Assembly (NCBI GenBank): GCA_030685015.1
Contig: JAUXWS010000059.1
Coordinates: 87,052 to 151,051 of the forward strand
DNA from: a bacterium
GTDB lineage: Bacteria > CAIWAD01
DNA: 64,000 nucleotides
Reading direction: 5' to 3'
Shown here in pieces: positions 578-56,465 of this stretch. Below the pieces are notes generated by a model. That model searched no databases. It was given only the letters and a program-made list of their open reading frames with translations, and was not told the DNA's origin. Numbering within the stretch: position 1 is the stretch's first letter; each line of letters opens with the position of its first letter. The position numbers were made by a program, and so were the translations under genes.

Positions 578-2998
578 CTACTTGACCAGCAATACCTTTT
601 CGGCTCCGATGCGGGCGCCGTCCACCGCCAGCTCCACCAAGTAATGTCCGCTTGCCATGGCCGCGCCGTTGAACACGACCCGATGCTCGCCCGCTGCGAC
701 CGGACCATCCATCAAACGCGCAACCAGACGGCCCTGGAGATCGAACACGGACAGGCTGGCCCGGCCGGGTCGATCCAACTGGTAGCTGATGGTCGTCATT
801 GGATTGAAGGGGTTGGGCCAGGCGCCGGCGAGGCGGGCCGTCGCCGGACGCGCGCCGCCATCCGGCAGGGAATCGATCAGCTCCTCGTGGCCGAAACAAT
901 GGAAATTGAACTGGAAATTATTGAGGGGAATCAGGGCGTTGTTCACAACCCGGTAGCTGGACACCTCCTCCCAGGTGCGGGGCACCAGTGTCAGGTTGGG
1001 CACAGGTCGAGGATCACCCGGCGTCTGGAAGGATTTCAGTTCCAGGGGCAGGACTTCGATCCAGAAAGGCTGGGTGAAGGGCTCCAACAGGCCGGCCACG
1101 CTGACGCCGATCCAGTCCTCGCTGGCATCGCCGCCGGCGTAGCTCGGCGCATAGTTGTGGTCGGATTGATGGAGGAGCGTCCCATTGACGGGCAGGCCGC
1201 TCCAAACCTTCAGGCGCCAGGCACTGGCATCCTCGGGGGGGATGTTGAAGCTGGCGAAGCGAAGGCGCAGGCTGTCGAGGGCGTAGCCCATGCTGGGGCC
1301 CATCTGGGGTGGCTGGAAGCGCTGGGCGTAGCCCAGGCCCAGGGCGTCACCAGAACCGGTGGTGTGGAGGAATTCAGGATTGGTGACATCCCAGCCGTAA
1401 TCGTTGGCCAGTTCCAGGACGCCGGTCGGCCGCACGATGTAACTGGGCAGATTGAGGCGATCGTTGGGGGCGTAGCCGTCCGGCGTCATCAGGCGGATCT
1501 GTGGAAAGTGCAGGCTGGTGGCGTCCGGGGTCAGCGAGAAGGCGACGTCCACGTGCTGGTGCTGTTCCAGGCTGAAGGTGCCGCCCAGGGCTGTCGGCAG
1601 GTTGTCCATGTAGAGGGACCACTGGACATCCTGCGCCTGGTTGAGACCGAAGTTCTGGAAGGTGGCGGTGCCGGGAATGGGCCGCCCCAGGGTCCGCGGG
1701 TACGGCAGGCGGAACTCCGTCACACCCACGTCATTGGGCAACAGGGGAGATCCCACCACGCGGAAATCGTCCACGAAGAAGCCGGTTCCGGTGCCGCCGT
1801 CGTGGTTGTTGTCCGTCTGGACCCGGAAGCGGAAGAAGACGAGATTGCCGCCCAGGAAGCTCACGTTGGTGGAGCGTCCGTGGCCGCCCCCATCCATGAA
1901 GTGGTACCACTGCCCGCTGCCCGTTTCCGTGTCGTAGTAGTCATAGAAAAGGGAGCGCCAGACGAAACCATCCAGGCTGTACTCCAGCAGGAAGTAGTCG
2001 TCCAGGCTGCTGTCGCCGTCGCCATCGTAGTCCAGCAGGTCGACCTTGGTCCAGAAGTCGATGAGCATGGTGTAGTTGGCCGGCAGGAAGATGGGGGGGC
2101 TGTAGATCACGTTGCTGATGGGCACTGCCTGGTTGGCCACTTGACAATGCACGCTGAAGGGACTGCTGTGGAAGGTGGTGGAGACGGCCCAGTGGTCGCC
2201 CGCCGCCGGCACGCCGGAGTAATGAAGGGTGGGTCCGGGGGTGTCCACGCCGTCGGCATTGTTCTGCAGCAGGATGAGGGCTCCGTCCGCCACCTGGATG
2301 TTGTCCAGCTGCATGCCGGTCAGGGCATCGTCATCCGGAAAGGATGTGTAGTCGTCGCTGGCGAAGGCGAAACGGATGCGGGTGGCGGTGGAACGATAGG
2401 GCGTCAGGTCGCAGACGGCATTGCGCCAGGTGTTGCCCAGCCCGGCCCAGCCCGCCCGGATGCCATGGCCGAAGATTTCCCCGAAGGCGAAGGCGTTGCT
2501 TACCGTGTAGGCCGGCGTCGAGGGCGTGAGCAGCTGCCAGGGTCCGGCGCCCATCTTCACTTCCACGTGGCAGGCATCCCACCCATCGTAGGGGGCGGGG
2601 GCACCGGCCGGGCTCTCCAGCGCCCAGAAGAGGTTGAAGGTAAGCTGCGGGCTGGTGGTGGCGCTCAAATTGAGGGGCGGCAGCTCCAGGAAGAGCAGGG
2701 TGTGGTCCAGGTAGCCGCCCACGTCGACGCTGGCGGACCACCAGTTCCAGGAGCCATCGAAACTGTTGAAGCTGCTCATGTGCCAGGTGCTGCCCTGGTC
2801 GGTCAAGTCCTGGCTGGTCCAACCGTCAAAGCCGGTGATGAAGTTCACCTCGTAAAGTGTCGTGTCCGTCCGGCTGGCATCCCGCTGCACGGGGGGCGGG
2901 AAATCTCGCGTCTCCACCCGGAAGGGGCTGAAGCTTGCGTGGGCAAGTCCCGCCAGGAGCAGCAGGAGGCACAATGCAGAAGCGCGCCGCTTGGCCAT
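578..2998 (-). CDS. large secreted protein with a C-terminal FlgD-Ig / T9SS type-A-like sorting domain
   Basis: ORF 578..3103. Start moved to the ATG at 2998, which begins the signal peptide MAKRRASALCLLLLLAGLAHA. The C-terminal ~80 aa read WPNPFNPMTTISYQL...VFDLQGRLVARL...SGHYLVEL, typical of the Por/T9SS C-terminal sorting domain. Confidence 0.7.
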   Translation of the reverse strand: MAKRRASALCLLLLLAGLAHASFSPFRVETRDFPPPVQRDASRTDTTLYEVNFITGFDGWTSQDLTDQGSTWHMSSFNSFDGSWNWWSASVDVGGYLDHTLLFLELPPLNLSATTSPQLTFNLFWALESPAGAPAPYDGWDACHVEVKMGAGPWQLLTPSTPAYTVSNAFAFGEIFGHGIRAGWAGLGNTWRNAVCDLTPYRSTATRIRFAFASDDYTSFPDDDALTGMQLDNIQVADGALILLQNNADGVDTPGPTLHYSGVPAAGDHWAVSTTFHSSPFSVHCQVANQAVPISNVIYSPPIFLPANYTMLIDFWTKVDLLDYDGDGDSSLDDYFLLEYSLDGFVWRSLFYDYYDTETGSGQWYHFMDGGGHGRSTNVSFLGGNLVFFRFRVQTDNNHDGGTGTGFFVDDFRVVGSPLLPNDVGVTEFRLPYPRTLGRPIPGTATFQNFGLNQAQDVQWSLYMDNLPTALGGTFSLEQHQHVDVAFSLTPDATSLHFPQIRLMTPDGYAPNDRLNLPSYIVRPTGVLELANDYGWDVTNPEFLHTTGSGDALGLGYAQRFQPPQMGPSMGYALDSLRLRFASFNIPPEDASAWRLKVWSGLPVNGTLLHQSDHNYAPSYAGGDASEDWIGVSVAGLLEPFTQPFWIEVLPLELKSFQTPGDPRPVPNLTLVPRTWEEVSSYRVVNNALIPLNNFQFNFHCFGHEELIDSLPDGGARPATARLAGAWPNPFNPMTTISYQLDRPGRASLSVFDLQGRLVARLMDGPVAAGEHRVVFNGAAMASGHYLVELAVDGARIGAEKVLLVK

Positions 2999-3129
2999 GG
3001 GAAGTTCCTCCTCGACAACGCACCTGGAGCCATGATCAGGTGCCGTTGAATACCGCATGCGGCGGAAGGGTGAATCGTCCCTTCTCGCGTGGATCGCCGC
3101 CAATGTGTGGATCGGTTGCCGCCGGGCGC

Positions 3130-18190: not shown

Positions 18191-21100
18191 ATGCCTTGCA
18201 GGTTGATCCCATTTTTCGCCCTCCTGCTTGTCCTGGTCGGTACCGCCCGGGTCCGGGCCGAGGGCTGGCAGGCCCGGGCGCAAGACTGGCACATGAAGCT
18301 GGTGGCCGAGGACGACCAGGGTTTGACCCTCAGCCTTCAGTTGGAGGAGAGCTTGGCCAAGGAGCTGGCGGATGGCCGCTTGCGGCCGGAGGCGCGGGGC
18401 GAGGACGATCCGCCCCTCGTCCTGGGCCGCTGGATCGCGCTGCCCGCCTCCGCCGTGGCGGATGTGGAGCCGGTGTCCCAGCTCTGGTCCCGGGCAAGCC
18501 CGGCGGGATCGCTTGACTGCTGCGATTTGTCGGCGCCCGTGCAGCGTCTGGGACAGCGCATGGCCAGCCTGGGCATCCAGCCCGTGGCCGATGACGGGAC
18601 CGTGCTGCTCGAGATGACCCTGCGCATCCGCTTCGTGGGGGGAGAGGCCGCCCAGCCTGGCGCCGTGCCCCGCGCCGGGTCGTGGCTGCAACTGGAGCGG
18701 GCCGGACGCCAGGTGCTTAATCCGGGCTTGACCCTGCGTCAACTGGCCGGACGCACGGCGGATCTGCCCCTGGGCCGTTATCTGGTGGTGGGCAAGGAGG
18801 CGTCCCTGACCTACATGGCGAACTGGGCCGCCTGGCGCCGCCAGCAGGGCTTCGAGGTCGCCCTTGTCTCCAGCGAGTCCCTGGGCGTGACCGGCAATTA
18901 CTGGGCGCCCATCCGCGACGCGGCCCAGGCCATGGCCGCGGACGAGGGGTTGGATTACCTGCTCCTGATCGGCGACATGAACATCGACCAATCCGGCTAT
19001 CATCTGCCCGGCGACCTGGTGCCCGGCGGCCAGTACGCGGAAACGAACTGGGGACGGCGCATCGTCAGCGATCACACCCTGGCCCTGCTGGAGGGGGACG
19101 ACTACTTCGCCGACGTGCTGGTGGGGCGCTTCTCCGCCGACAACGCCACCCAGGTCTCAATCATGGCCAGCCGCGCCCTGCTCTACGACCAGCAGCCGAC
19201 GGTGTCGGGGGATGCCTGGCTGAGCAAGGCCCTCATGGTCTACGACGTGGCGGGCGCCGCCAGCCGGCGCGAGACCTCCTTGTCCATCCGACAGCACCTG
19301 ATGGCGCGGGGAATTGCTCCCGTGGACACCATCCGCAACAACCGCTACACAAATCCGCAATCGCCCACCCTGGTCACCAATGCCATCAATGACGGCCGGG
19401 TGGTGGTGAACTACCGCGGTTACGGCTATCGCTATTCCTGGAACGGGCCGCTCTTCGGCGTGAGCAACATCAACCAGTTGTCCAACTACGGGCGGTGGCC
19501 GCTGGTGACCAGCATCGTCTGCGGGGGCGGGGATTTCGCCAGCGCCAATTACGACCCCTGCCTGGGCGAGGCCTTCCTGCGCGTGGGCTCGACCTCCGAG
19601 CCGAAAGGGGCCGTGGCCTTCATCGGGCCCTCCGAGGAGGACACCCACACCAGGTGGAACAACACCATCAACATGGGGATCTACCAAGGCCTGCTCGAAG
19701 AGGGCATCCGTGACGTGGGGGCCTTGATGGATCGCGGCAAGGCCGAGCTGTGGCACTGCTTTCCCAACCACCGCACCCAGATCTGGCACGACCCCGGCTC
19801 CCCCAGCCAGACGACGAACGCACCCTTCTACTTCTACTGCTACAACCTGTTGGGCGACCCCGGCACCCGCCTGCGGCTGGGCAGCCAGCGCACAGTGGCC
19901 CAACCCGCCTGGACGCCGCCGCCGGCGGGCTCCACCCAGCTCGAGCTGATGGTGAGCGACACGGAGGGACAGCCCGGCGCCGAGTTGTGGGTCTGCCTGA
20001 GCGGATCCGACAACCGCCGTCTGGCCCTGGCGCGGACGGATGCGGACGGACGGGCCGTGCTGGATTTCGCGCCGCTGGCCGTTGAGGCCTCCCACCTCGT
20101 CATCCACGGGGATGACTGGATCCCCCTCGATCTGGAGTTCACGCCCGCCCCGGCTGGATCCAACCTGGTCCTGCTGAACTGGTCCGCCGCGGCGGAGGAT
20201 AGCCTGCTGGCGGCCGGCGACGAGTTCGCCCTGGCGCTGAGGCTGCGTGAGGCCGGCGTGGCCGGCAGTCCGGCCGGGCGACGGCTCTCCGTCGAGGCGC
20301 TGGACGACGGACTGACCGTGCTGGTGGACGAGATGGACTTGCCCGCCCTGGCCTCCGGGGAGATCCTGGAAACGGAAGGGATGGCCCTGCGGCTTGCCCC
20401 CAGTGTGGAGCATGGCCGGGAACTGCCCATGCGCCTGACCTTGCGCGAGGCGGCGGGCGAGCTCCTGTGGGAACGGAGGCTGGTGGCCGTGGCGGCGGGG
20501 GCGAGGCCCGAGCTGCTGCAGTTGCAGACCTTGCCGCCCACGCCCGTGCCGGGGGCGGTGGTGGAGCTGCTCCTGACCTTCCGCAATGCGGGCCCGCTGC
20601 TCCTGGATGCCAACAGCTGCCGCCTCTTTCCATCCAGTACCGCCTGCACGATGTTGGACGCCGACGCCGCCCTCGACCCGCTGGAACCGGGCGCCGAGGG
20701 TGCCGCCTCCTTCCGCCTGCTGCTGGCGTCCGGCGTGCTGCCCGGGGCGCGACTCAACCTGGAACTCGTTTGCTTCCGCGCCGACCACTCCATGGCGGCC
20801 CGCCTGCCCATCACCCTGGCCGTGGGGGAGGCCGGCCCCACGGATCCGGTGGGCCCTGACGACCACGGCTATCTCATCTACCATCACGGCGACAGCTCGC
20901 CGCGGGCCCCCGTCTACGACTACCACGACATCACACAGCTGGGGACCGAGCTTCCCATGAACGACGAGGGCGCCATCTTCAACGATGACGGCGTGGACGG
21001 AGTCAGCCGCGTGCTGCCCCTGCCCTTCCCCTTTCGCTTCTACGGCGTGGACTACGACACGATCACGGTCTGCTCCAACGGCTGGATCGCCATGGGCGCG

Positions 21101-21841
21101 CAGCCGGATCACATCATCGGCCTCAACACGCCCATCCCCGCGGCCCAGGGGCCGGCCGCCATGGTCGCCGTGTTCTGGACCGACCTCTACAACTACTACG
21201 GCGGCTCCCGCTTCGGCCGCTGCTACCGCCATCACGACGAAGCGGAGCACACCTTCACGATCCAGTGGAACAACTTCCACCACACGGGCCATCCCTACCA
21301 GGACAACTGGTTCCAAGCCGTGCTGCGGGATCCCGCCTGGTGGCCCACGCCCACCAGCGACGGCGAGATCCTGCTGCAGTATCAGGACATCGTCACCACC
21401 TTCGGCGAACACATCTTCACGGTGGGGGTGGAGCGCCCGGACGAGGCGGCCGGGCTGCAGTACACCTTCAACGGCCAGTACCCGCCCGCCGGGCAGCCCG
21501 TCACCAGCCAGACGGCCCTGCTCATCACCACCGCGGAGCGCTTCGAGGAGACAGCCCTGCCAGCCGGGGAGCGCCCCCGCGCCCTGGCCATGGCGCCGGC
21601 CGCCCCCAATCCCTTCAATCCGGAGACCATCATCCGGCTGGAGCTGCCCAGCGCCGCTCCACTCCAGCTCAGCGTCTACAACCTTCGGGGCGAGCTGGTG
21701 CGACGGCTCCACAACGGCCCGGTGGCGGCCGGGCACCGCCAGTTCCGCTTTCACGCCGGCGGCCTGGCGGGCGGCGTCTATCTGGTGGAGGCGCGACAAG
21801 GAGGACACCACGTCGTGCAACGTGTGCTCCTCTTGCCCTGA
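18191..21841 (+). CDS. peptidase C25 (gingipain-like cysteine protease) family protein with a C-terminal FlgD-Ig/T9SS type-A-like sorting domain
   Basis: Signal peptide MPCRLIPFFALLLVLVGTARVRA. Gingipain-like blocks YLLLIGDMNID, NYRGYGYRYSWNG, TSIVCGGGDF. C-terminus APAAPNPFNPETIIRLELP...LSVYNLRGELVRRL...GVYLVEA. Confidence 0.85.
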   Translation: MPCRLIPFFALLLVLVGTARVRAEGWQARAQDWHMKLVAEDDQGLTLSLQLEESLAKELADGRLRPEARGEDDPPLVLGRWIALPASAVADVEPVSQLWSRASPAGSLDCCDLSAPVQRLGQRMASLGIQPVADDGTVLLEMTLRIRFVGGEAAQPGAVPRAGSWLQLERAGRQVLNPGLTLRQLAGRTADLPLGRYLVVGKEASLTYMANWAAWRRQQGFEVALVSSESLGVTGNYWAPIRDAAQAMAADEGLDYLLLIGDMNIDQSGYHLPGDLVPGGQYAETNWGRRIVSDHTLALLEGDDYFADVLVGRFSADNATQVSIMASRALLYDQQPTVSGDAWLSKALMVYDVAGAASRRETSLSIRQHLMARGIAPVDTIRNNRYTNPQSPTLVTNAINDGRVVVNYRGYGYRYSWNGPLFGVSNINQLSNYGRWPLVTSIVCGGGDFASANYDPCLGEAFLRVGSTSEPKGAVAFIGPSEEDTHTRWNNTINMGIYQGLLEEGIRDVGALMDRGKAELWHCFPNHRTQIWHDPGSPSQTTNAPFYFYCYNLLGDPGTRLRLGSQRTVAQPAWTPPPAGSTQLELMVSDTEGQPGAELWVCLSGSDNRRLALARTDADGRAVLDFAPLAVEASHLVIHGDDWIPLDLEFTPAPAGSNLVLLNWSAAAEDSLLAAGDEFALALRLREAGVAGSPAGRRLSVEALDDGLTVLVDEMDLPALASGEILETEGMALRLAPSVEHGRELPMRLTLREAAGELLWERRLVAVAAGARPELLQLQTLPPTPVPGAVVELLLTFRNAGPLLLDANSCRLFPSSTACTMLDADAALDPLEPGAEGAASFRLLLASGVLPGARLNLELVCFRADHSMAARLPITLAVGEAGPTDPVGPDDHGYLIYHHGDSSPRAPVYDYHDITQLGTELPMNDEGAIFNDDGVDGVSRVLPLPFPFRFYGVDYDTITVCSNGWIAMGAQPDHIIGLNTPIPAAQGPAAMVAVFWTDLYNYYGGSRFGRCYRHHDEAEHTFTIQWNNFHHTGHPYQDNWFQAVLRDPAWWPTPTSDGEILLQYQDIVTTFGEHIFTVGVERPDEAAGLQYTFNGQYPPAGQPVTSQTALLITTAERFEETALPAGERPRALAMAPAAPNPFNPETIIRLELPSAAPLQLSVYNLRGELVRRLHNGPVAAGHRQFRFHAGGLAGGVYLVEARQGGHHVVQRVLLLP

Positions 21842-41577: not shown

Positions 41578-41887
41578 CGAAAAGACTCCTGTTGGAAGAA
41601 CTGTGAGGATCCACGCCGTGCCTTGAACGTGTCAGCCCGGAGCTGCCTCGTTTCGAACCACGCCCCTGTCACGTCGCCCCGGCCGTCCGGCCCAGCGGAG
41701 CGGACCCGGATTCCCGCCCGAATGCTCCTTCCAGCAAGGACATACGCGACAAGCGGCGCGGGAATGTAGTGTTAGCGGGGGGGAAGTCCACTCACAATTT
41801 CGCATGGACAATCGCCGATCCAGGCCAGGCCGGGATCTCCCTTCACAGTCCGGAGCATGGCTGGTCGGCGCGATCGCGGTAAATGAA

Positions 41888-41911
41888 AGAGGGTGCCCGC
41901 GGGCACCCTCT
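41888..41911 (-). terminator. 24-nt perfect palindrome AGAGGGTGCCCGCGGGCACCCTCT followed by UUCAUUU on the minus-strand transcript: intrinsic terminator of selenoprotein candidate 1
   Basis: Seen directly, 23 nt downstream of the stop at 41935. Confidence 0.5.
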
Positions 41912-41934
41912 TCGGCGTCAGGATGTCGTCGGCC

Positions 41935-43722
41935 TCACTTGACCAGCATGACCTTCATCGCGTCGCGGGGCAGGCCGTCCACCACCAGCCGCACGAGGTA
42001 GAGGCCGCTGGCCAGCTCGGCGCCGTCCAGGGTGCGGGCGTGGGTGCCCGCCGCCTGGCGGCCCGCCTCAAGACGCCGCAGCTCCTGCCCCAGGGTGTTG
42101 AAGACGGCCAGCGCCACCGCGCCTTCCCGCTCCAGGCGATATTCCACCGTGGTGGTCGGATTGAAGGGGTTGGGCGTGGCCTGCACCAGGCGGAAGTCCT
42201 GCGGGCCGGCCGCCGGCGCCGGCGTCACGCCGGTCCCCATGAAGTAGTCCATGACGTGCTCGAGGAACATGGGCATGTTCATGGAACCGGTGACCGAGGA
42301 ATGGATGCGCGTGGCCTCAACGGGGAAACCGCAGAATATGGCGGCGTAGGGCGTGCCGGTGGTGTAAACCGCCGCCGGGGCGTTGGCCACCTGCCGCCAG
42401 GTGCCGAAGACCACGCCGGGTGCCGTCACGTCCAGCACGTCGGGATCCTGGCTGTTGTTGGCGCCCTGCACGCCGGTGATGACGAAGGCGGTGCCGTCGA
42501 ACCAGGTGTCGCCCGCCACGCCATCGATCACGAAGACGGAGCCGGCATCGGTGTCGGTCACGGTCACGCCGAAGTAGTCGGCCAGGAAGTCGGCCCGGGC
42601 GGGATTGGTGGACATGAACTGGCTCGACAAGAGCAGCCGTCCTCCGCCGTCCAGGAAGGTGCGCAGACCAGCCTCCTCGGCGTCGGTGACGTCGTTCTGC
42701 TTGATGCCGCCCAGCCACAGGATGCGCTCATAGCGGCCCATTTCGTCGGCGGCCAGGGGATTGTTCAAGCCGGACCAGACGTCGTGGCCGATCCCGGCCA
42801 GATCCAGGGCGGAGGTGACGAAGCTCTCGTTGTCGTCCATGCCGCCGTCGCTATCCACCAGCAAGGTGGCCGGGCGGCCAATGCGCTGGGTGTGGGTCAG
42901 CGTGCCCGTGGCCGTGCCGCCGTTGTAGGGGGCCGAGTACGCGAAGCTAAAGGTGGCCCAGTGCGGCTCGATGCCGGCGGCGACGGTGTAGACGAAGGGG
43001 CCGCTCCCTTCCACGGTCTCGCCCGGTTGGGCGGCTGGGAAGGTGACGGTGTTCTGGGTGATGGTCACGGCCGGGTCGCTGCAGGTCATGACCACCGTGC
43101 AGCCGTTGGCGGGGACGGCGATGGGGCTGTTGCGCAAGCTCAGGTCGTAGTGGATGGTCTCGCCGCCGTCGGGCCGGCCGTCCCCGTTGTCGTCGGAGAC
43201 GATGGCCAGCGATTGCACGGTGAACACAGGATAAGCAACCGACATGTACTGGTTGATGATGTTGTGCATCGCGCCTTCACTGAACCCGCTAGCCGTGTAG
43301 CGGACGATACCGTCTGTGTCCAGAATGACGTTGTATGGTATGTAGTTGTTGCCGTATTGGCTGTAGATGCTGGCGCAGCCCGTCAACACCAGGAAGGTGG
43401 GGTTGTACTGGTCCCAATGGGCATGCAGGGCGGCCGCTGAGGCGTTGTCCGTGTCGATGTGGACCAGTTCGAAGGCGGCGGGATCGTAGACTTGCTCAAA
43501 GTTGGTTTGAAGCACCGGAAACTCGGTGTTGCAGGAGGGTCACCACGTGGCACCGAAGTTTATCACCACCACCTTGCCCCGCTGGGCGTAGAGGTTCCAG
43601 CTGCCACCGTTCCAGTCGTTGCAGGTGAAGTCCGTCGGCGTTTGGCCCACCATCCAGGCGGCCTCAGCCGACAGGGCCATGCCCAGGGTGACCACGCCCA
43701 GCGCGATCGCGTTCTTCATCAT
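41935..43722 (-). CDS. candidate selenoprotein: secreted TlpA-like thioredoxin-fold oxidoreductase (UxxC active site) fused to a large C-terminal region with a FlgD-Ig/T9SS type-A-like sorting domain. In-frame UGA at 43540..43542 is read as Sec.
   Basis: ORFs 43540..43854 and 41935..43515 are in the same frame, separated only by TGA. Start at the ATG at 43722 with a GGGAGG RBS and signal peptide MMKNAIALGVVTLGMALSAEA. Read-through gives KVVVINFGATW-U-PSCNTEFPVLQ, which aligns with TlpA/ResA WCxPCRxExPxL. C-terminus TPNPFNPTTTVEYRLE...GLYLVRL. Confidence 0.65.
43511..43530 (-). promoter_or_regulatory. SECIS-like hairpin AA-CACCG-AGUUUC-CGGUG-CU; the core stem starts 11 nt 3-prime of the UGA at 43540..43542 (9 nt to the extended AA/UU stem)
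   Basis: Seen directly on the minus-strand mRNA. The core stem begins 11 nt after the UGA (9-nt spacer to the flanking AA/CU extension), and the loop contains GU. Position and shape fit the bacterial SECIS model. Confidence 0.5.
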
Positions 43723-43793
43723 TCCGCCTCCCTGATGGGTCCATGTATTGAACCATGGACCTGTGTTGTTCCGATTGAATGCTTTGTCAACCG

Positions 43794-43822
43794 CCGGGAG
43801 CATGATCGCACCATGCTCCCGG
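43794..43822. other. perfect 11-bp inverted repeat CCGGGAGCATG-N7-CATGCTCCCGG between the two paralogs
   Basis: Seen directly. It lies ~50 nt downstream of the copy-2 stop (43871) and ~70 nt upstream of the copy-1 start. No U-tract follows, so it may be a terminator-like or processing hairpin. Confidence 0.4.
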
Positions 43823-43870
43823 GAGATTTGGCAATTCCGAAGCAAATTCAGCAACTCCCGCGCCAGAAGA

Positions 43871-45595
43871 TCAGCGCACGGCCCGCACCTGGAAGTAGAG
43901 CTGTTCCACGCCGGGCAGGAACAGAACCGCGGGGGGCTGCTCCGTCTCCATCACCGGCTGTCCTGGAAAAGTCCAGGGCTGGGCCGATTGGTACACGCGA
44001 TATCCGGTGGCGCCGGGCACGGGCGTCCAATGCAGCGTGGCCGCGCCGGCGGTCATGCCCAGCGACAGGTCCGTCACCGGGTCCGGGGGCGTGGCGGGAT
44101 GGGCCGCGTGCCAGGCGAAGGCGCGCTGCAGGAAGCCGGCCATGGTCACGGAGGCCGGCAGCGGTCCATAGAGACGCAAGGCCTCGAGGGGGAATCCGCA
44201 GAAAATGCTGTTGAATCCGCCGCCCGCCAGGTAGGCCGCGGCGGGACCCAACGTCCCCTGGCGCCAAGCGGCCATCTGCACCGCCGGCGGCGTCACCGCG
44301 ATGACATCGGGATGCACGTTGTTGTTGGCCGCCGCCGCCCCCGACAGGATGAGGTCCATGCCGCCGAACCAGGGGTCGTCGGCCGTGGTGGTGGCCCAGA
44401 AGATGTTGCCGCCGGTGAGCGCCGTCGTTTGCACGCCGAAGCGCTGGGCGAGGAAGGGGGCGTTCTGCGCGTTGCTGGAGGCGTACTGGCTGGAAAGCAC
44501 CAGCAGGCCGCCACGGTCCAGGAAGGCCTCCAGCACGGCCCGCTCCGCCGCGGTGATGTCCGGGTTGCGGATGCCGCCCAGCCAGATGATGCGCTGGTAT
44601 CTCAGCGCCTCCACCTCGCTCAGGGCGCCCTGCTGGTCCAGGGCCCACAGGTCGGCGGCCACGCCCAGGGCCGAGAGCGCGTTCAGGGCGTAGCTCTCGT
44701 TGTCGTCCATCTCGCCGTCGGCATCCACCAGCAGCAGGTCGGGACGGGCGATGCGCTGCTGGACCAACAGGTTCTGCTCCCAGGTGCCGCCCTCGAAGTT
44801 GGCCGACACGTGGATCTGGAAATCCGCCCAGTGCGGCTCCGCTTCGGACGACACGATGAAACTGAAGGCCGGCGTCTGCACGACCTGGCCCGGTGCCATG
44901 GCCGCCACCGTGGCTTGCGCCACCTGCGGTGACAGGGCGCTGGAGGTGGTCGACCAACTGATGTTGATGGACTGGGCGGCCATGCCGTTGGGACTGTTGC
45001 GCAAGGTGAGGGCGAAGCTCACCTGCTCGCCGGGATCTGGCCGGCCGTCGCCGTTGTCGTCGGACAGGATGTCCACCGACAGCAGGTTGAAGAAGGGGTT
45101 GGGCAGGCTGAGATACTGCTGGATGACGGCGTGGATGGCCGACTCGTTGAAGCCCGAGGCGGTGTAGCGGACGATGCCCTCCGTGTCCAGCACCACGTTG
45201 TAGGGGATGTAGTTGTTGCCGTATTGATTGTAGATGCTGGCGCAGCCCACGAGGACGGGAAAGGTGGGGTTGTATTGGTTCCAGTGGGCGTGCAGGGCGG
45301 CGGCGCTGGCGTTGTCCGTGTCGATGTGGACGACTTCGAAGGCGGCGGGATCGTAGGAGGCCTCGAAGTTGGATTGCAACACCGGAAACTCGGTGTTACA
45401 AGACGGTCACCACGTGGCGCCGAAGTTGAGGAGGACCACCTTGCCGCGCTGGCTGTAGAGATTCCAGCTTTGGCCGTTCCAATCCGTGCAGGTGAAATCG
45501 GTGGGCGTGCTGCCGATGGTCCAGACGGCGGCCGCGGGCGCGCAAAGGACCATCGACAGAAACAGCCCGGTCAACAAACGGGCGCGGTGCTTCAT
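43871..45595 (-). CDS. candidate selenoprotein, paralog 2: secreted TlpA-like thioredoxin-fold (UxxC) protein with the same middle region and an FN3-like C-terminus. In-frame UGA at 45407..45409.
   Basis: ORFs 45407..45595 and 43871..45382 are in the same frame, separated only by TGA. Signal peptide MKHRARLLTGLFLSMVLCAPAAA. Read-through gives KVVLLNFGATW-U-PSCNTEFPVLQ, identical in the active-site block to copy 1. RBS AGGGGGGA. Confidence 0.65.
45378..45397 (-). promoter_or_regulatory. SECIS-like hairpin AACACCG-AGUUUC-CGGUGUU (7-bp stem) beginning 9 nt 3-prime of the UGA at 45407..45409
   Basis: Seen directly. The hairpin-forming nucleotides are identical to copy 1, while flanking synonymous positions differ. 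Confidence 0.5.
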
Positions 45596-45768
45596 TAATC
45601 CCCCTGGTTCACAAGCGGAACAAACGTAAGGGCTGAGGTGGCTCGCTCCAAGAGAAAAGAGCCATCACGTCAATTATTCAGCGGGCGGGGATAGGCCTGA
45701 TGACACCCAGGCAGCTTGATGTCCCACCCCCCCGACACCTTGCCGGCGAATCACAAAGGAGGTGTCCC

Positions 45769-46128
45769 ATGATCAAGCAGAAAACCAACAAGCCGGTGAT
45801 GGTCAGCTTCCGCCGGAGCGTGGGCGAGCTTCGCCTGCTGGGGCTGGTGGCCTGGGGCGGGCTGTGCCTGGATCTGGCCGGGCTGCGCGGCCGGGACGTG
45901 GCGCTGCGCCTGGGGGCGCCCCGCATGTGGATGGAGACGATGCTGGAGGCCGTGGCGCAGGCGGGATCCCGCCAGCTGGTGCTGGTGGATTTGGATCTCA
46001 GCGTCTTCCTGGGCGATCCAAGCGAACTGGCCGGCCGTCTGGAAACTTGGGCGGCGCGGCAGGGCGTCCGCCTGACCCGCCTGTCCACCCAGGGCCTGTC
46101 CGCCGCCGGGTCCGCACGGGCGGCATGA
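45769..46128 (+). CDS. hypothetical protein (119 aa)
   Basis: Strong RBS AAAGGAGG 7 nt upstream of the ATG at 45769. It sits inside ORF 45700..46128. Confidence 0.5.
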   Translation: MIKQKTNKPVMVSFRRSVGELRLLGLVAWGGLCLDLAGLRGRDVALRLGAPRMWMETMLEAVAQAGSRQLVLVDLDLSVFLGDPSELAGRLETWAARQGVRLTRLSTQGLSAAGSARAA

Positions 46129-46156
46129 ATGGACGGGGCGGATGCGCTGGCATGCC

Positions 46157-49215: not shown

Positions 49216-50408
49216 TCAGGCCGTGCGCGTCACGGTCAGCCGCACCTGGCCGTGGTTGTTCTTGTAGAAGTTCCAGGCCTCGTTGGCGTGGCAGCAAAGG
49301 TAGCCGGCGCGGGACGGCGTGCGGCTGTGGGCCGTGCCGATGCGGAAGGTCTCCAGGGGAGCAGGCGTGCCGTCCGGCCCCGGATCGCCGCCGTTGGCGA
49401 TGGCGCCCATGAGGGCCATCCAGGGCTCCTGCTCGGCCCGCCGCGTGCCCCAGAAATCCGCCTCCTCGTTGCCGGTCACCTTCTTCACCAGTTGTTCGAA
49501 GCGACCCCAGACCCCCGCGGCGACGTGAATCAATTCACCCTTGTCGAAGCGGCCATCCTTGGTGCCCCCTGGGGCCGCAGACCAGGTCGCGGTCCATCCA
49601 CTGGCCCTCGGCACTGGACTCGCAAGTGGCGCCCGCCTACAGCCAGAGGCCAGTGATGTTCCAACGGTCGGCGGGCGTAAATGGCCAGCTGGCAGGATTC
49701 ACCCACGGCGAGCTGTTGCGTCCGCCGGCAGGGCGCTTGGAGGATGGGCGGATCCTCCAGGCGCTTGAGGGCGGTGGAATGGATGTGATCGTCGCCGCTC
49801 GTCAGTTTTGGCGTGTGGCGGGGCTGGGTGCGCAGCAGCTTGAAGACGCCGGAGCAAGAGTCGTGCAGGACGTCCTGGTGGTTGGGGCGGACCTGGCGCA
49901 GCATGCCCGGCTTGAAGGCCTAACCCTGGGCCTGGGCCTCCTCGATCATCCACTGCAGAGCGCCGTTGGAGAGGCCGGTCTCGGCGTAGCCGCCCCCCAC
50001 GTCGCAGTGCACGCCGCGCTTCCAGCGGTCGACGTCGGACAAGCCGGTCAGATCGGGCAGGCCGCAGGCCGACATCAGTCCGGCCAGACTGCGCACCGTG
50101 CAGGCGCCGCGGCTGAAGCCGATAAGGAAGAGGCGGCCGCCGTCCTGCACGTTGCGGCAGAGCCAGTGCCAGGCGCTGAGGATGTTCTTGCTCAGCCCTT
50201 CGCCCACGCTGCCGCCCTTGGCCTTCTCCCACCATCTGTCTTCGGTGCCCGCGCCGGGATGGTGTTAGGCCAACTGGTGCCTGCCCTGGGCGTCTGTCTC
50301 GGCCAGCGCGTTGTGGAGACGCACCACGTTGGCGGGGACAGGAGTGCCGCTCTCGTCCTGGTCGGGTGTGCTCCAGGTGCCGTCGCAGCAGATAACCAGC
50401 CGCCGCAT
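49216..50408 (-). pseudogene. disrupted DUF2235 (T6SS Tle1-lipase-like alpha/beta hydrolase) gene. In-frame TAA at 50265..50267 and TAG at 49920..49922, plus a frameshift in 49530..49614.
   Basis: N-terminal fragment MRRLVICCDGTWSTPD...NVVRL carries the DUF2235 CDGTW and NVxRL blocks. The next same-frame fragment has GFSRGA (GxSxG) and GVHCDVGGGY. Four consecutive ORF-track pieces lie on one strand. Confidence 0.5.
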
Positions 50409-50541: not shown

Positions 50542-52572
50542 TCATGGGCGCCGACGGTCCGGGTTGTGGAAGTAGTTGAAGCGCCAGAGCGCCTCGTCGC
50601 CATGGCAAGTGGCGCACAGGGTCTCGCTGCTCTCGGCCGTGAGGAATTGCACTCGTCCATGCTCACGACCTTCGCGCCAGGGCTGATGTGGATTGTGACA
50701 GGTGCGGCAATCCACATGCAGGTAGCGTCGCTCTTCCGGAACGATGGAGGGCAGCGGCCCCTTTTCCCAGGCGGGGTGGAACCAGGCCTTGGGCACGCGC
50801 TGTCCGACTCCGGAGTCGTGGTGGCAGGCCAAGCAGCCGATGGCGCCGGTTGTCCAATTGTCGGGCTGCCGTTCCCGGCTTCCTTCGGCCCAGTCCGATT
50901 CGGGCATGAGATGACCCAGGTTCGATCCGGCCACGGCGGAGCTGAGCAGGGCCGGCGTGGCCGCCTGGTGCGGACTGTGGCAGGCTGCGCAGGGATTGGG
51001 CGATTCGCCGGGCATTCCGCGCCGGTCGTGCATGCTGCCCAGGATGGAGCCCTGGTTGGTATGGCAGTCCATGCACAAGGCGCCGTCATGATTGCCCGCG
51101 CGAAGGAAACTGGAGGCATCGTCGCCGTTCATGCCCCGTGCCCATGCAGCCCCGACGGGACTCCACTGGTGTGGGTCGTGGCAGGTTTCGCAGCCGATGC
51201 GCTCATCCGCAAGGCGTGGCAGCCAGGAAGGCCGGAGGGCTCCGATTCCCCTTCCCACCGGATGGCTGAATTCACCCACGGAGCTGAGCCCCGGAGTGTT
51301 GGCTGCGGCATCCTCGTGACAGCGAAGGCACAGGCGCGTGGCCGGGCTTAGCAGGCCGGCCTCGGCGGGACCATCGGGACTGGTGGCCAGCACGTCGCGG
51401 CCGTGGGCATCGTGACAACTGCTGCAGCGCCACACCGACTGACCCGAGAGGGAGATGAAAAGCGGTTCGTCGGCGCCATGGTCGGAGGCCAGAATGGAAG
51501 CTTGGCCTGGGTGGCAACTCAGGCAAAGGCCATCTTCAGCCTGGTCCATGCGCCGCAGGAAACTGGTTCCCGGCGTGCCGGGCTGGCCTGCGTCGGTCTC
51601 GCCTCCGACGGACCACCGATGCGGATCGTGGCAGGTGATGCAAGCCACGTGGCCTTGTCGCAGGGGCAAGTCGCCACTTCCCTCCGGCACCGCGCCCAAG
51701 GGATGGCCCCAGGCATGCGCGGCGTCCTCGCTGTGGGATTGCGGCGCCGCGTGACAGCGTTGGCAAAGGGCGTTGCCGCGAGAGTCGGGCGAGGCGTTGG
51801 CGTGGGGCGCATGACAGGTCGAGCAGGCGTCGTGCTCCCCGGGCTTCCCACTGGACAGGCTGTGACGGGTGGACAGGACCTCCTGTTGCGGCTCATGGCA
51901 TGCGGCACACAGCCTGCCACGATCCTTGCCCTCCGTGTTCCGCGTGGGATGCGCGCTGTGCATCTTGTGGCAACTGAGGCATTCCACCCGGTCCCGCGGG
52001 GTGAAGGAATTGGTCAGCGAAGCGCCTCGACCATCCTTGAGCTGTGCGTGGATCGGGTGATTCCCGGCATTGCCCGCGTGGTCCGCATGACAGTTGAGGC
52101 AAAGCTCCGAGGCGAGAATGCCGTCTCGGATGAAGGGCGACAGCTCGTACTTGCGCCCCATTTTGTGCGTGTGCGGCGTGTGGCAGGTGCCGCAATAGAC
52201 GTCGCCATTCAGGTCGAGCGGAAGACTGCCCGTGGAAAAACCCTTGGGGAGTTTCCGCAAATGGATGTCGCCGGGGCGAAACGCAGTGCGGCTGTCCTTC
52301 ACGTAGCCATCGTGGCAGGACCAGCACATTTCTTCCGAGCTGTTGCGCGCCGGCTCGCCGTCCAGGATCACCGGGTTCTTCAGGGGAGGCAGGAAGGGCT
52401 CCAGGCGGTCAAAATCGTCGCCCCAGTTGATATGGCAGATGATGCACTGACGGAGGTGCTCGGCGCGCGATACCACGGCAAGGCTGTTGGATGAAGCACA
52501 CAGCAATGCCAGCAGGAGGACGCGAAAGGTCAGGTTCTGGCTTGGGATCACAAGGGGCCGGATCTTGGCCAT
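50542..52572 (-). CDS. multiheme c-type cytochrome with 18 CxxCH motifs, secreted
   Basis: Signal peptide MAKIRPLVIPSQNLTFRVLLLALLCASS. I counted 18 CxxCH motifs in the translation. Confidence 0.85.
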   Translation of the reverse strand: MAKIRPLVIPSQNLTFRVLLLALLCASSNSLAVVSRAEHLRQCIICHINWGDDFDRLEPFLPPLKNPVILDGEPARNSSEEMCWSCHDGYVKDSRTAFRPGDIHLRKLPKGFSTGSLPLDLNGDVYCGTCHTPHTHKMGRKYELSPFIRDGILASELCLNCHADHAGNAGNHPIHAQLKDGRGASLTNSFTPRDRVECLSCHKMHSAHPTRNTEGKDRGRLCAACHEPQQEVLSTRHSLSSGKPGEHDACSTCHAPHANASPDSRGNALCQRCHAAPQSHSEDAAHAWGHPLGAVPEGSGDLPLRQGHVACITCHDPHRWSVGGETDAGQPGTPGTSFLRRMDQAEDGLCLSCHPGQASILASDHGADEPLFISLSGQSVWRCSSCHDAHGRDVLATSPDGPAEAGLLSPATRLCLRCHEDAAANTPGLSSVGEFSHPVGRGIGALRPSWLPRLADERIGCETCHDPHQWSPVGAAWARGMNGDDASSFLRAGNHDGALCMDCHTNQGSILGSMHDRRGMPGESPNPCAACHSPHQAATPALLSSAVAGSNLGHLMPESDWAEGSRERQPDNWTTGAIGCLACHHDSGVGQRVPKAWFHPAWEKGPLPSIVPEERRYLHVDCRTCHNPHQPWREGREHGRVQFLTAESSETLCATCHGDEALWRFNYFHNPDRRRP

Positions 52573-52798
52573 GGAGGCCTCCGCGGGGATGAAGAGAATG
52601 TGCTTCCGTCAGAACAGGAGTCGGTGGCCAACGGCCGCAGGGGGCGATAGCCTCAATTGTGAAACTGTTGCCAAGTTAATCCCCGTCGTGGGCAATTCAA
52701 GTGCAAGCCAGCGGGTTTCCAACTTGACATGGCAGCTTTCGTCACAGACCTTGAATCGACGAAAGCCGTTGGCAAGTTGAGTTCATGCTGGCCTTGGG

Positions 52799-53542
52799 AT
52801 GTGTATGAAGATCCGGATCCTGTTCCTGTTTTTGTTGACGGCGGCGGTTGCCGCGGGCGCCGCCGGTGCCGGGCGGCCCTCTCCCAAGGGCGCATGCCTG
52901 GTCTGTCACAAGTTGAAGACGCCAAATTTGTACGCGGACTGGCACTCCTCCGCCCATGCCAAGAACGGAGTGACCTGCCTGGACTGCCATGAGGCGCGGG
53001 CCAGCGAACCGGATTCCTATGCCCATGGTGGAGCCACCATTTCACTTTTCGTGACCCCGAAGGATTGCGCCGGATGCCATGAGGTGGAGACAAGCCAGTA
53101 CGCGCGCTCCGGACACGCCGGCGCCGCTGTGGATCTGGAGAGCATCGACCCCGGGCTGCGCGCCAATTACGGCGAGCCCGGGTCCTGCAGCAAGTGCCAT
53201 GGTGGTCACGCCCGTCGCGATCCCGACCGGCCCATCGGCCAGCCCGTGGTGCCCCGTCCGGAACACGGCGTGGGTCGCCTGAACCAGGACGGATCGCTGG
53301 GGGCCTGCACGCCTTGTCATGCCGAACACCGCTTTGCCAGGGACGTGGCGCGCAAAGACTCAACTTGCACGGCCTGCCACGGGGAGGAACACCGTCCCCG
53401 GCATGAAGGCGCCATTCTTGCCGCCGGCGGACGGCGCGCGGGCGTGCCCCCCCTGGACAGTCAAGTGGCGTGCGCCAGTTGCCACATGTCCGTGGGGCGG
53501 GGGCGGCCAGTGTCGCATCTCATCCAGCGCAAGGGACAGTGA
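52799..53542 (+). CDS. multiheme c-type cytochrome with 7 CxxCH motifs, secreted
   Basis: Signal peptide MKIRILFLFLLTAAVAAGAAGA. Motifs CLVCH, CLDCH, CAGCH, CSKCH, CTPCH, CTACH and CASCH. Confidence 0.8.
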   Translation: MCMKIRILFLFLLTAAVAAGAAGAGRPSPKGACLVCHKLKTPNLYADWHSSAHAKNGVTCLDCHEARASEPDSYAHGGATISLFVTPKDCAGCHEVETSQYARSGHAGAAVDLESIDPGLRANYGEPGSCSKCHGGHARRDPDRPIGQPVVPRPEHGVGRLNQDGSLGACTPCHAEHRFARDVARKDSTCTACHGEEHRPRHEGAILAAGGRRAGVPPLDSQVACASCHMSVGRGRPVSHLIQRKGQ

Positions 53543-53605
53543 CCGCTGTGCTTCCGCACGTCCAGTTAGAGTGCCTCAGCCCATTCCAGTAGTCTCGGAG
53601 CCGAC

Positions 53606-55204
53606 ATGAACCTGGCGTACTTCAGAAACATCTGGCTGGCGGTGTTGCGCAGTCTGGCCATCAACAACATCAGTCGCGCCGGCGTGGCCATCACGACCTC
53701 GGCATTCGTCTCCTTCTTCTTCTTTGAGATCAGCATGCTGACCGGGGTCCTTCACAACCCCTACGTGGGCATGATCACCTACCTGGGCATTCCCATGCTG
53801 TTCATCCTGGGCCTGATGTTGATCCCGATCAGCTGGGTGTGGGAGGCACGACGCCGGAAATGCAGCATCAAGGCCCTGTTGTGGGAGAGGTTCGATCGAC
53901 GCATGCTGGAGCGTCGTGCGCGCGGCGCATTGGCCTTGCGTGTGCTGGTCATCATGAGCTTCGTCAATGTGGGCTTCATCAGCGTGGTGGGATTCCAGGC
54001 GGCCAAGCACATGGACGAATCTGAATTCTGCGGCACCACGTGCCACACGGTGATGGGTCCGGAATGGGCCGTGTATCAGGGGTCTCCGCACGCCCGTGTG
54101 CAATGCGTGCATTGTCACATCGGCGAAGGCGTGGGTGCCCTGGTGGACGCCAAGCTCAACGGCGCGTGGCAGATGATCGCCCTGTCCCTGGGCATCTATG
54201 AACGGCCGATTCCCACTCCGGTCCACAACTTGCGCCCGGCCCGCTTCACCTGCGAGAAGTGTCATTGGCCCGCGCTTTTCCACGGCAACCAATTCAAGAA
54301 CATCGTTCACTACGAAGAGGACGAAAGCTCCACGCCGCGCCACACGACCCTGATGATGAAGACCGGGTCGGGCGAGCCGGGGCATGAGCACGGCAGTCAT
54401 TGGCACGTGTCCCCCAGCAATCAAGTGCATTACGCGTCCCTGGATGACAAGGGCGAAACCATGGTCTGGGTTGACATGCGGTTGCCCGACGGAGGGGTGC
54501 GTCGCTACCACAACAAGTCCTTGTCGAAGGCGGACGCCGAGCGTGCTGGACTAACACACACGATGGACTGCGTGGATTGCCACAACCGGGCCACGCATGT
54601 CTTCGAGCTGCCTGCGGTTGCCGTGGATCAGCGGATTCGCCTGGGACTCATCAGCCGGGATCTGCCCTACATCAAGCGTCAGGCGCTGGCCGCTCTTGTG
54701 CAGGCGTACCCTGATCGCGACGCCGCGATGACGGGGATTGACGCAAGCATTCGCGGATTCTATCATCAGGAATACCCCGAACTTGCCATGGCCCGCGCCA
54801 CCGCCCTGGACTCCGCGGTCACGACGGTGCAGGCCATCCACCGGCGCAACATTCATCCGGACATGAAGGTGGTCTGGGGGAGCTACCCCAACCACCTGGG
54901 TCACGGCAGCACCTCAGGGGGCTGTTTTCGGTGTCACAATCAAGACATGGTGGATGATTCGGGAGCCGGCATCCCGGACGACTGCGTGCTCTGTCATTCG
55001 ATCCTCTCCAACGACGAGCCGGAGCCTTATCTCTATCTGTTCCGGCCGGACGAGTACGCGCCGCGGGAAACACAGGAGATGCAGCGATTCCTGCGGACGG
55101 AATTCTGGGAATACACACGGGATGCAGTGGAAAAGGGCGCCCGCCCGAATCAGTCACCACCGGACTGGTTCAACAAGGCGGCGGGCCGCGAATCCGGGGA
55201 TTGA
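53606..55204 (+). CDS. membrane-anchored multiheme cytochrome c with two N-terminal TM helices, 5 CxxCH and 1 CxxxCH; NapC/NirT or ImcH-like architecture
   Basis: TM helices VAITTSAFVSFFFF and ITYLGIPMLFILGLMLIPI. Heme motifs CGTTCH (CX3CH), CVHCH, CEKCH, CVDCH, CFRCH and CVLCH. Confidence 0.8.
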   Translation: MNLAYFRNIWLAVLRSLAINNISRAGVAITTSAFVSFFFFEISMLTGVLHNPYVGMITYLGIPMLFILGLMLIPISWVWEARRRKCSIKALLWERFDRRMLERRARGALALRVLVIMSFVNVGFISVVGFQAAKHMDESEFCGTTCHTVMGPEWAVYQGSPHARVQCVHCHIGEGVGALVDAKLNGAWQMIALSLGIYERPIPTPVHNLRPARFTCEKCHWPALFHGNQFKNIVHYEEDESSTPRHTTLMMKTGSGEPGHEHGSHWHVSPSNQVHYASLDDKGETMVWVDMRLPDGGVRRYHNKSLSKADAERAGLTHTMDCVDCHNRATHVFELPAVAVDQRIRLGLISRDLPYIKRQALAALVQAYPDRDAAMTGIDASIRGFYHQEYPELAMARATALDSAVTTVQAIHRRNIHPDMKVVWGSYPNHLGHGSTSGGCFRCHNQDMVDDSGAGIPDDCVLCHSILSNDEPEPYLYLFRPDEYAPRETQEMQRFLRTEFWEYTRDAVEKGARPNQSPPDWFNKAAGRESGD

Positions 55205-55497
55205 GCGTCGGTGAAGGTCACCTTGGAACCCCGATGCATCGCCGCGGGCCGGGTCGATCGAATCGGGCGCATTCACAGTCCAGTTGGGCGGCACAGGTAG
55301 CGCCTCAGATATACATTAGGCGTAAAACAAAACCGGTCATTTTTTCAAACCAAATGTTAGGTTCTTGACGGGCTGGCGATGCGGGTCATTCCACGCTCCG
55401 TTCCGTGTTCCAGCCGAACGTTGCGCATTCCTGATCGATCGAACTTCCAGGGCGGCCGGCCATGGCTGCTTGCGCCCGAAGCCCCAGGAGCCCGCGC

Positions 55498-56259: not shown

Positions 56260-56465
56260 AACGGGAAGCGGTTAAGCAGTAGACGGCGTTTGCGATGTGG
56301 AGAGAAGTTGATAAACGAAGTTAATTGTCGCCTTAAGGCTACTACAGATAACAGCATCAGATCGAGATCATAGATATAAACCGGTACTCAAACATGTGTT
56401 GGCTGAAGGTAGCCTACGAGTCCTTATGCAATTTCTAAGCAATCCGATGAAGAAAGGAGACAACC

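Follow-up and report, generated by a model that had tools for sequence, protein, structure and literature searches.

The 64-kb window analysed here (64,000 nt of contig JAUXWS010000059.1, assembly GCA_030685015.1) contains two adjacent paralogous genes, referred to as copy 1 and copy 2, whose predicted products are exported multidomain proteins with selenocysteine (Sec) in the active site of an N-terminal thioredoxin-like head. The comparative evidence that both are selenoproteins is strong. The best overall explanation, which is considered probable with some reserve, is that they form a pair of exported Sec-thioredoxin scaffold proteins, of which copy 1 would be a disulfide reductase exported by the type IX secretion system (T9SS) and copy 2 would be located in the cell envelope. 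Both genes are found on the minus strand, exactly in the interval 41935..45595 where an earlier reading made from the letters alone (the sequence-only reading) had placed a paralogous pair, and the motifs quoted there (DNGDGRPD, LLVDSDGGMDDNES, ILWLGG, FLDGGGRLLLSS, TPNPFNPTTTVEYRLE, GLYLVRL and ATLHWTPVPGATGYRVYQS) are all present in the translations.

From the N-terminus, copy 2 is composed of a signal peptide, the Sec-thioredoxin head, an Ig-like sandwich, a GIFT/ThuA-like alpha/beta domain and an FN3-like C-terminus. Copy 1 has the same first four elements and ends in a T9SS type A C-terminal domain (coordinates in Table 1). As had been noted, each gene has its own ribosome-binding site a few bases 5' of the ATG (AGGGGGA in copy 2, GGGAGG in copy 1). 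Both proteins are predicted, from their N-termini as read, to be exported with a cleavable signal peptide. The read-through products are 53% identical across 504 amino acids (aa; E = 0) and the likeness ends before the C-terminal domains: identity is 82% in the thioredoxin domain, 39% in the Ig-like domain, 44% in the alpha/beta domain and 14% in the C-termini, which at this level appear to be unrelated. The scaffold domains of window copy 1 resemble those of copy 1 orthologues more closely than those of window copy 2, and the heads stay ~80% identical across paralogues. The duplication is therefore probably old and the head strongly constrained or homogenised.

There is one in-frame TGA per gene, in a context identical in both copies, and it replaces the first active-site Cys of the head (W-U-P-S-C). 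A protein search found ~48 family members. Most of these are annotated as products of ~502-529 aa starting just past the TGA, and seven are full-length homologues (568-604 aa) with Cys at the TGA position (motif WCGPC). Sixteen distinct genes, from the window and from eight loci of related genomes (loci are designated by L numbers), share the TGA at this codon, with the Sec motifs W-U-P-S/G/A-C, W-U-G-G-C and W-U-S-G-C. It is also present in L009 (Delongbacteria chromosome OY760505.1; YPT-U-PGC) and in L010 (a KSB1 metagenome-assembled genome, MAG; ATW-U-GGC). Most TGA-bearing relatives come from MAGs of uncultured bacteria labelled Candidatus Delongbacteria. A reassignment of UGA to Trp or Gly was rejected for two reasons: homologues have Cys at the aligned position, and UGA still serves as a normal stop in this organism, both genes being terminated by TGA.

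In the homologues a hairpin with an AGUU-containing apical loop was found 8-12 nt past the UGA in every case when the sequences were folded one by one. Both window copies likewise have a stem-loop of the bacterial selenocysteine insertion sequence (SECIS) type shortly 3' of the UGA; the 63-nt segment of copy 2 has a minimum free energy of -19.7 kcal/mol (z = -2.4). L007 and L008 preserve the stem with a different set of base pairs, by which the encoded peptide NTEFPV is changed to NAEFPH or NTEFPH, and the Cys paralogue has a different peptide at the hairpin position (NDEMPEL). The interrupted hairpin variant of copy 1 is also seen in L005 and L006.

It is very improbable that the TGA is a genuine stop. 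Under this strongly disfavoured reading each gene would be a ~60-aa open reading frame (ORF) followed by a separate protein of 503 or 526 aa, or else a decaying pseudogene. Such a split would cut the thioredoxin fold exactly at the catalytic residue, and it does not account for the coding conservation on both sides of the TGA in the 16 genes, the uninterrupted Cys homologues or the conserved hairpin after the TGA. The downstream ORFs have no signal peptide and a GTG start in the middle of a helix, and their third-position GC of 0.90-0.91 marks them as coding. Gene callers do split all Sec forms, into products of 57-81 aa and ~502-527 aa.

The TlpA-like head of the sequence-only reading was borne out by both profiles and structure. 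Both heads match AhpC-TSA and Redoxin above the Pfam cutoffs (the gathering score of PF00578 is 26). The NCBIfam models of ResA, TlpA and DsbE match the heads far below their cutoffs (NF002854, 62-69 vs 170 bits; NF047696, 35-38 vs 230; TIGR00385, 34-35 vs 123), the sub-threshold ResA subfamily match of the copy 2 head having E = 3.9e-19. By these scores the heads are judged to be relatives of ResA/TlpA/DsbE, not equivalogs. For the structure, the head was modelled through P0003, a Cys homologue 61% identical to copy 1 (AlphaFold2, AF2; mean predicted local distance difference test, pLDDT, 86.6). In Foldseek the P0003 head superposes on ResA with a template modelling (TM) score of 0.87, a root mean square deviation of 1.9 A and 32% identity, which places it in this fold. 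It also superposes on TlpA-type proteins, DsbE and pneumococcal Etrx, with the peroxiredoxin AhpE ranked lower.

This ranking speaks against the alternative that the heads are Sec peroxidases which detoxify peroxides at the envelope in the manner of peroxiredoxins or glutathione peroxidases, and are not disulfide reductases. The peroxiredoxin signature PxxxTxxC/U is also absent, the site N-F-G-A-T-W-U-P-S-C being of the thioredoxin WCxxC type, and WCGPC, found in the Cys paralogues, is a thioredoxin motif. The peroxidase alternative is thus considered quite unlikely, even though AhpC/TSA is the best Pfam family, weak GSHPx matches occur, Sec is typical of peroxide-reducing enzymes and the head family is named 'Prx-like' in the selenoprotein literature (PMC13188914). 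Selenoprotein families are defined there by Pfam domain plus Sec motif, and the family 'Prx-like thiol:disulfide oxidoreductase' (PF00578, UxxC/UxxU) is rated 'predicted with high confidence' (PMC13188914, PMC9312934). With their PF00578 domain, an in-frame UGA first in UxxC aligned with the Cys of homologues, and the stem-loop 3' of it, the predicted heads belong by this criterion to that described family.

Behind the head, the AF2 model of the copy 2 post-TGA ORF (residues 72-574, mean pLDDT 82.8) shows an Ig-like sandwich carrying DDNGDGRPD-GE and then a flavodoxin-like alpha/beta domain of ~215 aa. Both are mostly at pLDDT >85, apart from a few short loops of low confidence. The top PDB match of this model in Foldseek is the ectodomain of site-1 protease (S1P, 9csd_A; E = 2.5e-8, 478 aligned columns), and the matches span the Ig-like and alpha/beta domains jointly. 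The next matches are dimethylformamidase, N-acyl-beta-Phe acylase, OST subunits and the ThuA-like 1t0b_F (E = 2.2e-4, TMt 0.58), so that the domain matches solved members of the ThuA/class I amidotransferase-like/GIFT fold. In S1P a P-like sandwich is joined to a GIFT subdomain (named after the GldG/IFT52/OST type), which packs on and stabilises the catalytic head, and a putative Ca lies in an acidic pocket (PMC11231238).

Sequence profiles do not reach this far. The window copies are below the cutoffs of PF06283, PF13709, PF23355 and PF09822, with only DUF4159 appearing at E = 0.14, and in 24 module homologues the weak Pfam matches were to DUF4159 (9/24), ThuA (4/24, best 2e-6), IFT52_GIFT (3/24) and ABC_transp_aux (2/24). 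A profile of the GIFT domain searched against PDB sequences gave insignificant matches only (IFT52, E = 0.26), and no sequence-level similarity to S1P was detectable. The Ig-like and 'ThuA-like' middle of the sequence-only reading therefore holds at the level of fold and clan but not at that of Pfam family, and 'P-like sandwich plus GIFT domain' is a better name. Amidotransferase chemistry is not expected, because there is no conserved Cys-His-Glu triad: D, W, G, G, S and E are invariant, and neither Cys nor His is conserved. An acidic motif, VD-x-DG...E, is also invariant in the family.

The scaffold is the same supradomain as is found behind the catalytic domain of S1P and of many bacterial S8, M6, M1 and C1 peptidases with T9SS tails at their ends. 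A phmmer search with copy 1 residues 165-500 recovered 1,190 cluster representatives at E <= 1e-3 (386 at E <= 1e-10). In a sample of 58 module proteins a T9SS tail (Por_Secre_tail) was present in 40, a Peptidase_S8 head in 17 and an Omp28-like head in nine; other heads included M6, M1, M28, M36, C1 and a beta-lactamase. Heads of the S8, M6, M1 or C1 peptidase type, combined with T9SS tails, made up most of the sample. Some module proteins end in a dockerin, not in a T9SS tail. The hosts include KSB1, LCP-89, Zixibacteria, WOR-3, TA06, Gemmatimonadota, Krumholzibacteria and Eisenbacteria. The P-like plus GIFT-class unit is a promiscuous, mobile scaffold that no Pfam family represents. Head swapping is directly evidenced in the KSB1 MAG JADHWK01, where two proteins (L010 and L017) share scaffold and tail at 66% identity across 451 aa and have unrelated Sec heads, of AhpC-TSA type in L010 and Omp28-like in L017.

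The Omp28-like proteins were also seen as a second kind of Sec head on the same scaffold and T9SS tail, at L011:4456-6534, L012:5533-7566 and L017:5290-7311. Their thioredoxin-like N-terminus (PF11551) has an in-frame TGA in the motif G-N-T-x-U-x-Y-C-P (L011, L012) or T-A-S-W-U-V-Y-C-P (L017). A hairpin follows the TGA in each gene, with an AGUUC loop in L011 and L012. Omp28/PF11551 is not among the families in the 2026 selenoprotein review.

The C-termini of the two copies set them apart. Residues 516-583 of the 595 in copy 1 match TIGR04183 with 27.0 bits (cutoff 23), in agreement with the T9SS type A-like ending proposed earlier. Most copy 1-type orthologues have a precomputed PF18962 match, and the C-terminal domain of the P0003 model is at pLDDT ~86-96. 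Copy 2 has no TIGR04183 match. Its FN3-like ending, also proposed earlier, was recovered when a profile of 19 copy 2-type C-termini was compared with the PDB (3mpc_A 'Fn3-like protein', E = 4.5e-5; 2dkm, 4e-4; 1k85, 6e-3), and Pfam fn3 was reached by only one of the 19 members (E = 0.06). The AF2 model has six strands here (pLDDT ~79-88) against the seven of an FN3 sandwich. The chain ends at the YxVRA strand, which is FN3 strand F in the alignments, and strand G is apparently missing.

A similar ending is found outside the family. In L001 (2163-4442, minus strand; the same in L002) a 759-aa beta-helix protein adjoining the cluster ends in an FN3-like domain (RYHVYEIPTPW…RFYRVRADDQF; E = 8e-6 against the FN3-like profile in a local search of related loci). 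The same profile had no matches in a set of 5.8 billion proteins. An FN3-like ending common to unrelated proteins would be as expected of a sorting or docking module.

At least two other window proteins, at 578..3103 and 18191..21841, end in T9SS-like tails. The second of these is a gingipain-family (Peptidase_C25) protein, and it was considered as a candidate for PorU. This was rejected, as NF033707 gives 34 bits against a cutoff of 420. Its homologues bear a gingipain propeptide and are named C25 peptidases, and the sequence points to probable T9SS cargo rather than to the sortase.

In the proposed mechanism both proteins would cross the inner membrane by the Sec translocon of general protein export and fold in the periplasm. 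Copy 1 would then be passed to type IX secretion, lose its C-terminal domain and either be set free or become attached to the cell surface, where the Sec-x-x-Cys centre would carry out thiol-disulfide exchange. This would most likely be disulfide reduction; WCGPC, the motif found in the Cys paralogues, is the canonical reducing one. The role of the scaffold would be to keep the head in place and stable, by analogy with the GIFT subdomain of S1P. Copy 2, with no recognisable T9SS signal, would most likely stay in the periplasm or envelope as an inner counterpart, tethered through its FN3-like domain. A more speculative role is the opening of disulfide bonds in extracellular protein substrates, which is plausible since the scaffold is otherwise used by secreted peptidases.

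Several observations weigh against this explanation. On the side of selenocysteine, the copy 1 hairpin is weak taken alone (5-bp core, z = +0.25), and the 64-kb window contains no Sec machinery, no tRNA-Sec and no tRNA gene, nor any Rfam match. A single-register consensus by RNAalifold gave almost no covariation energy; a one-position shift of the upper stem in some sequences (L007, L008) makes this consensus uninformative. On the side of secretion, copy 1 is below the Pfam gathering score of 27 for PF18962 (21.3 bits) and also below that for PF13860 (21.6 bits), and no T9SS core gene (sprA, porV, porU, gldKLMN) is present in the 64-kb window. The main weakness concerns electrons. Reductases of the TlpA/ResA type obtain their electrons from CcdA or DsbD in the inner membrane, and we know of no electron source outside the outer membrane, so that a reductase at the surface is chemically unexplained.

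Location in the periplasm would solve the problem of electron supply. The two proteins could be ordinary periplasmic TlpA/ResA-like reductases serving, for instance, cytochrome c maturation or the repair of envelope proteins, the copy 1 sandwich being only an Ig- or FlgD-Ig-like interaction domain that does not function as a T9SS signal. The sub-threshold Pfam scores and the lack of T9SS components in the window would agree with this, as would its richness in multihaem cytochromes, which need periplasmic thiol reduction. It is nevertheless held to be unlikely. TIGR04183 is above its curated cutoff in copy 1, PF18962 is precomputed in most copy 1-type homologues, T9SS tails occur in 40/58 of the sampled module proteins, and at least two further window proteins have the same kind of tail. 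The module lineages KSB1, Zixibacteria, Gemmatimonadota, Eisenbacteria and WOR-3 are moreover usually placed in the FCB superphylum, where T9SS is known to occur.

A wider version of the surface-reductase explanation is possible but rather doubtful. Uncultured FCB-type lineages (Delongbacteria-like, KSB1) may export Sec enzymes to the surface by T9SS, swapping redox heads (ResA-like W-U-x-x-C, Omp28-like U-x-Y-C-P) onto the S1P-like scaffold of peptidases. Such enzymes would be the disulfide-opening partners of the protease arsenal, and the FN3-like end could be a second envelope-sorting or strand-complementation module that has so far gone unrecognised.

Table 1. Features of the two selenoprotein genes and of other regions mentioned in the text (window positions)
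Feature	Position	Strand	Basis or description
Copy 2 gene	45595..43871	minus	ORF and translation; 574 codons + stop, read through TGA-63
Copy 2 putative signal peptide	45527..45595	minus	MKHRARLLTGLFLSMVLCAPAAA-VW cleavage, AxA-type site; read from sequence
Copy 2 ResA/TlpA-like thioredoxin-fold domain, ~aa 27-162	45110..45517	minus	PF00578 53.2 bits, PF08534 49.6 bits, above cutoff
Copy 2 in-frame TGA, predicted Sec 63, FGATW-U-PSC	45409..45407	minus	Aligns with Cys of WCGPC in full-length homologues
Copy 2 SECIS-like hairpin	45374..45401	minus	8 nt past UGA, 11-bp stem, AGUUUC loop; conserved in homologues
Copy 2 Ig-like ('P-like') beta-sandwich with DDNGDGRPDPGE, ~aa 169-282	44750..45091	minus	AF2 strands, model residues 98-211, mostly pLDDT >90
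Copy 2 GIFT/ThuA-like alpha/beta domain, ~aa 287-498	44102..44737	minus	AF2; Foldseek; DUF4159 E = 0.14
Copy 2 FN3-like C-terminal domain, ~aa 505-574, ends YFQVRAVR	43874..44083	minus	Profile against PDB; AF2
Intergenic inverted repeat, 11-bp perfect, 7-nt loop	43794..43822	.	~50 nt past copy 2 stop, no U-tract after
Second intergenic hairpin, 8-bp stem, 8-nt loop	43738..43761	minus	Directly 5' of copy 1 ribosome-binding site
Copy 1 gene	43722..41935	minus	ORF and translation; 595 codons + stop, read through TGA-61
Copy 1 ResA/TlpA-like thioredoxin-fold domain, ~aa 25-160	43243..43650	minus	PF00578 48.6 bits, PF08534 47 bits
Copy 1 in-frame TGA, predicted Sec 61, FGATW-U-PSC	43542..43540	minus	Translation and TGA conservation in homologues
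Copy 1 SECIS-like hairpin	43507..43534	minus	5-bp core, AGUUUC loop, lower stem interrupted
Copy 1 Ig-like ('P-like') beta-sandwich, ~aa 167-281	42880..43224	minus	AF2 model of homologue, strands at residues 164-278
Copy 1 GIFT/ThuA-like alpha/beta domain, ~aa 286-498	42229..42867	minus	AF2 model of homologue; phmmer aa 165-500
Copy 1 predicted T9SS type A sorting domain (FlgD-Ig-like sandwich), ~aa 510-595, ends KVMLVK	41938..42195	minus	TIGR04183
Hairpin 23 nt past copy 1 stop	41887..41912	minus	Perfect 13+13 palindrome = 11-bp GC-rich stem, 4-nt loop
Peptidase_C25 (gingipain-family) protein, 1216 aa	18191..21841	plus	Sub-threshold T9SS tail
841-aa protein	578..3103	minus	No recognised family except sub-threshold T9SS type A tail, E ~4e-4

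The hairpin after copy 1, which the sequence-only reading had called a strong terminator, is indeed strong, but the TTCATTT that follows it on the coding strand is a weak U-tract. It is likely a transcription terminator, judging from position and stem. The 11-bp perfect inverted repeat reported between the copies lies exactly where it had been described. A consensus terminator scan flagged neither structure. The corresponding spacer in L003, L004, L005 and L007 has no perfect stem of >=7 bp, and that of L001 is longer, with 8-bp stems unrelated to the window repeat.

The gene order in the window is SDR, copy 2, copy 1, RRM protein, PNPOx-like protein, MFS, LemA and M48 peptidases. The order SDR, copy 2 type, copy 1 type, (third copy), RRM, PNPOx and MFS is repeated in L001-L003, and the window order corresponds to that of contigs from MAGs labelled Candidatus Delongbacteria. 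The third paralogue of the related clusters has Cys in L001 and L002 and Sec in L003 and L007. The window holds two paralogues, and the gap up to the RRM gene (41578-41934) is too short for another. The spacer between SDR and copy 2 (45596-46156) is ~560 nt long compared with ~126 nt in L001. Within it, the opposite strand has an ORF of 142 aa (45700-46128) whose third-position GC is high and which matches no family.

Further along, a respiratory or electron-transfer cluster (50542-60513) encodes cytochromes of decahaem-like (50542-52572) and NrfH-like (53606-55204) type, together with a cytochrome c7-like protein, a 4Fe-4S protein and an NrfD-like membrane subunit (57454-60513). The decahaem-like protein was considered as a second selenoprotein on account of a weak C-terminal 'UshA-like (seleno)protein' PCGU match, and was rejected for lack of support: the ORF ends DRRRP-TGA, contains no PCGU motif and shows no evident in-frame Sec codon. 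A 95-aa ORF at 49920-50207 (minus strand) matches only the middle of a Tle1-like phospholipase domain of the type VI secretion system (profile positions 73-122 of 287), and probably represents a gene fragment or a gene with wrongly drawn limits.

The two proteins resemble several known systems without coinciding with any of them. With the Prx-like Sec family they share the AhpC-TSA domain, the thioredoxin fold, Sec first in UxxC and the existence of Cys homologues. They differ in that the window head is followed by three further domains in a ~600-aa protein, the family being compared here through the Pfam domain and Sec motif given in reviews. Neither review (PMC13188914, PMC9312934) mentions secretion or T9SS for this family. 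The fold, the WCxxC-type site and the extracytoplasmic location implied by the signal peptide are shared with ResA, TlpA, CcmG/DsbE and the Etrx proteins (Etrx1 and Etrx2 are described as exposed thioredoxin-family lipoproteins of S. pneumoniae). Unlike these, the window proteins have Sec for the nucleophilic Cys, no membrane anchor or lipobox, and a large fused scaffold with a secretion tag. NF041054, 'ResA-like WAxxUGC motif-containing protein', also describes a ResA-like selenoprotein with extra C-terminal sequence, and matches weakly (E = 4.9e-7 and 3.7e-10). The window motif is W-U-x-x-C, not WAxxUGC, and the scores of 29-40 bits are far from the cutoff of 300, so the window proteins are not members.

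S1P (MBTPS1) and the bacterial proteins in which an S8 head, the module and a T9SS tail are combined have the same succession of a beta-sandwich and a GIFT-class domain, and an acidic loop of the window proteins may correspond to the Ca pocket of S1P. The window head is a Sec-thioredoxin and not a subtilase, and the S1P module belongs to a Golgi membrane protein and not to T9SS cargo. With T9SS type A cargo the pair has in common the N-terminal signal peptide and, in copy 1, a C-terminal sandwich of ~85 aa with PNPFNP, GxY and K-x-x-x-K; copy 2 differs by having no tail. In the literature no T9SS cargo was found reported as a selenoprotein (a full-text search for selenocysteine and type IX secretion gave nothing related), and no paper linking Delongbacteria to T9SS was found.

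The sequence-only reading had suggested that an oxidoreductase head fused to a sorting domain is an undescribed selenoprotein family. This stands for the fused architecture, which was found neither in the two selenoprotein reviews nor elsewhere in the literature searched, but not for the head, whose family is already described. Each component is known (head family, T9SS tail, GIFT-class fold), and only their fusion appears to be undescribed. In public annotation the proteins are cut at the TGA and labelled 'hypothetical protein' or 'T9SS type A sorting domain-containing protein', which has made the multidomain selenoprotein family invisible. The exchange of heads on a common scaffold helps in the annotation of many 'hypothetical' T9SS cargo proteins, and the P-like plus GIFT-class scaffold ties bacterial T9SS cargo to the architecture of the eukaryotic site-1 protease. 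If copy 1 is exported by T9SS, selenium-dependent redox chemistry would take place outside the outer membrane, which raises the question of how the enzyme is re-reduced. Sec enzymes brought to the surface by T9SS would be extracellular selenoproteins, a class that was not found described in the literature.

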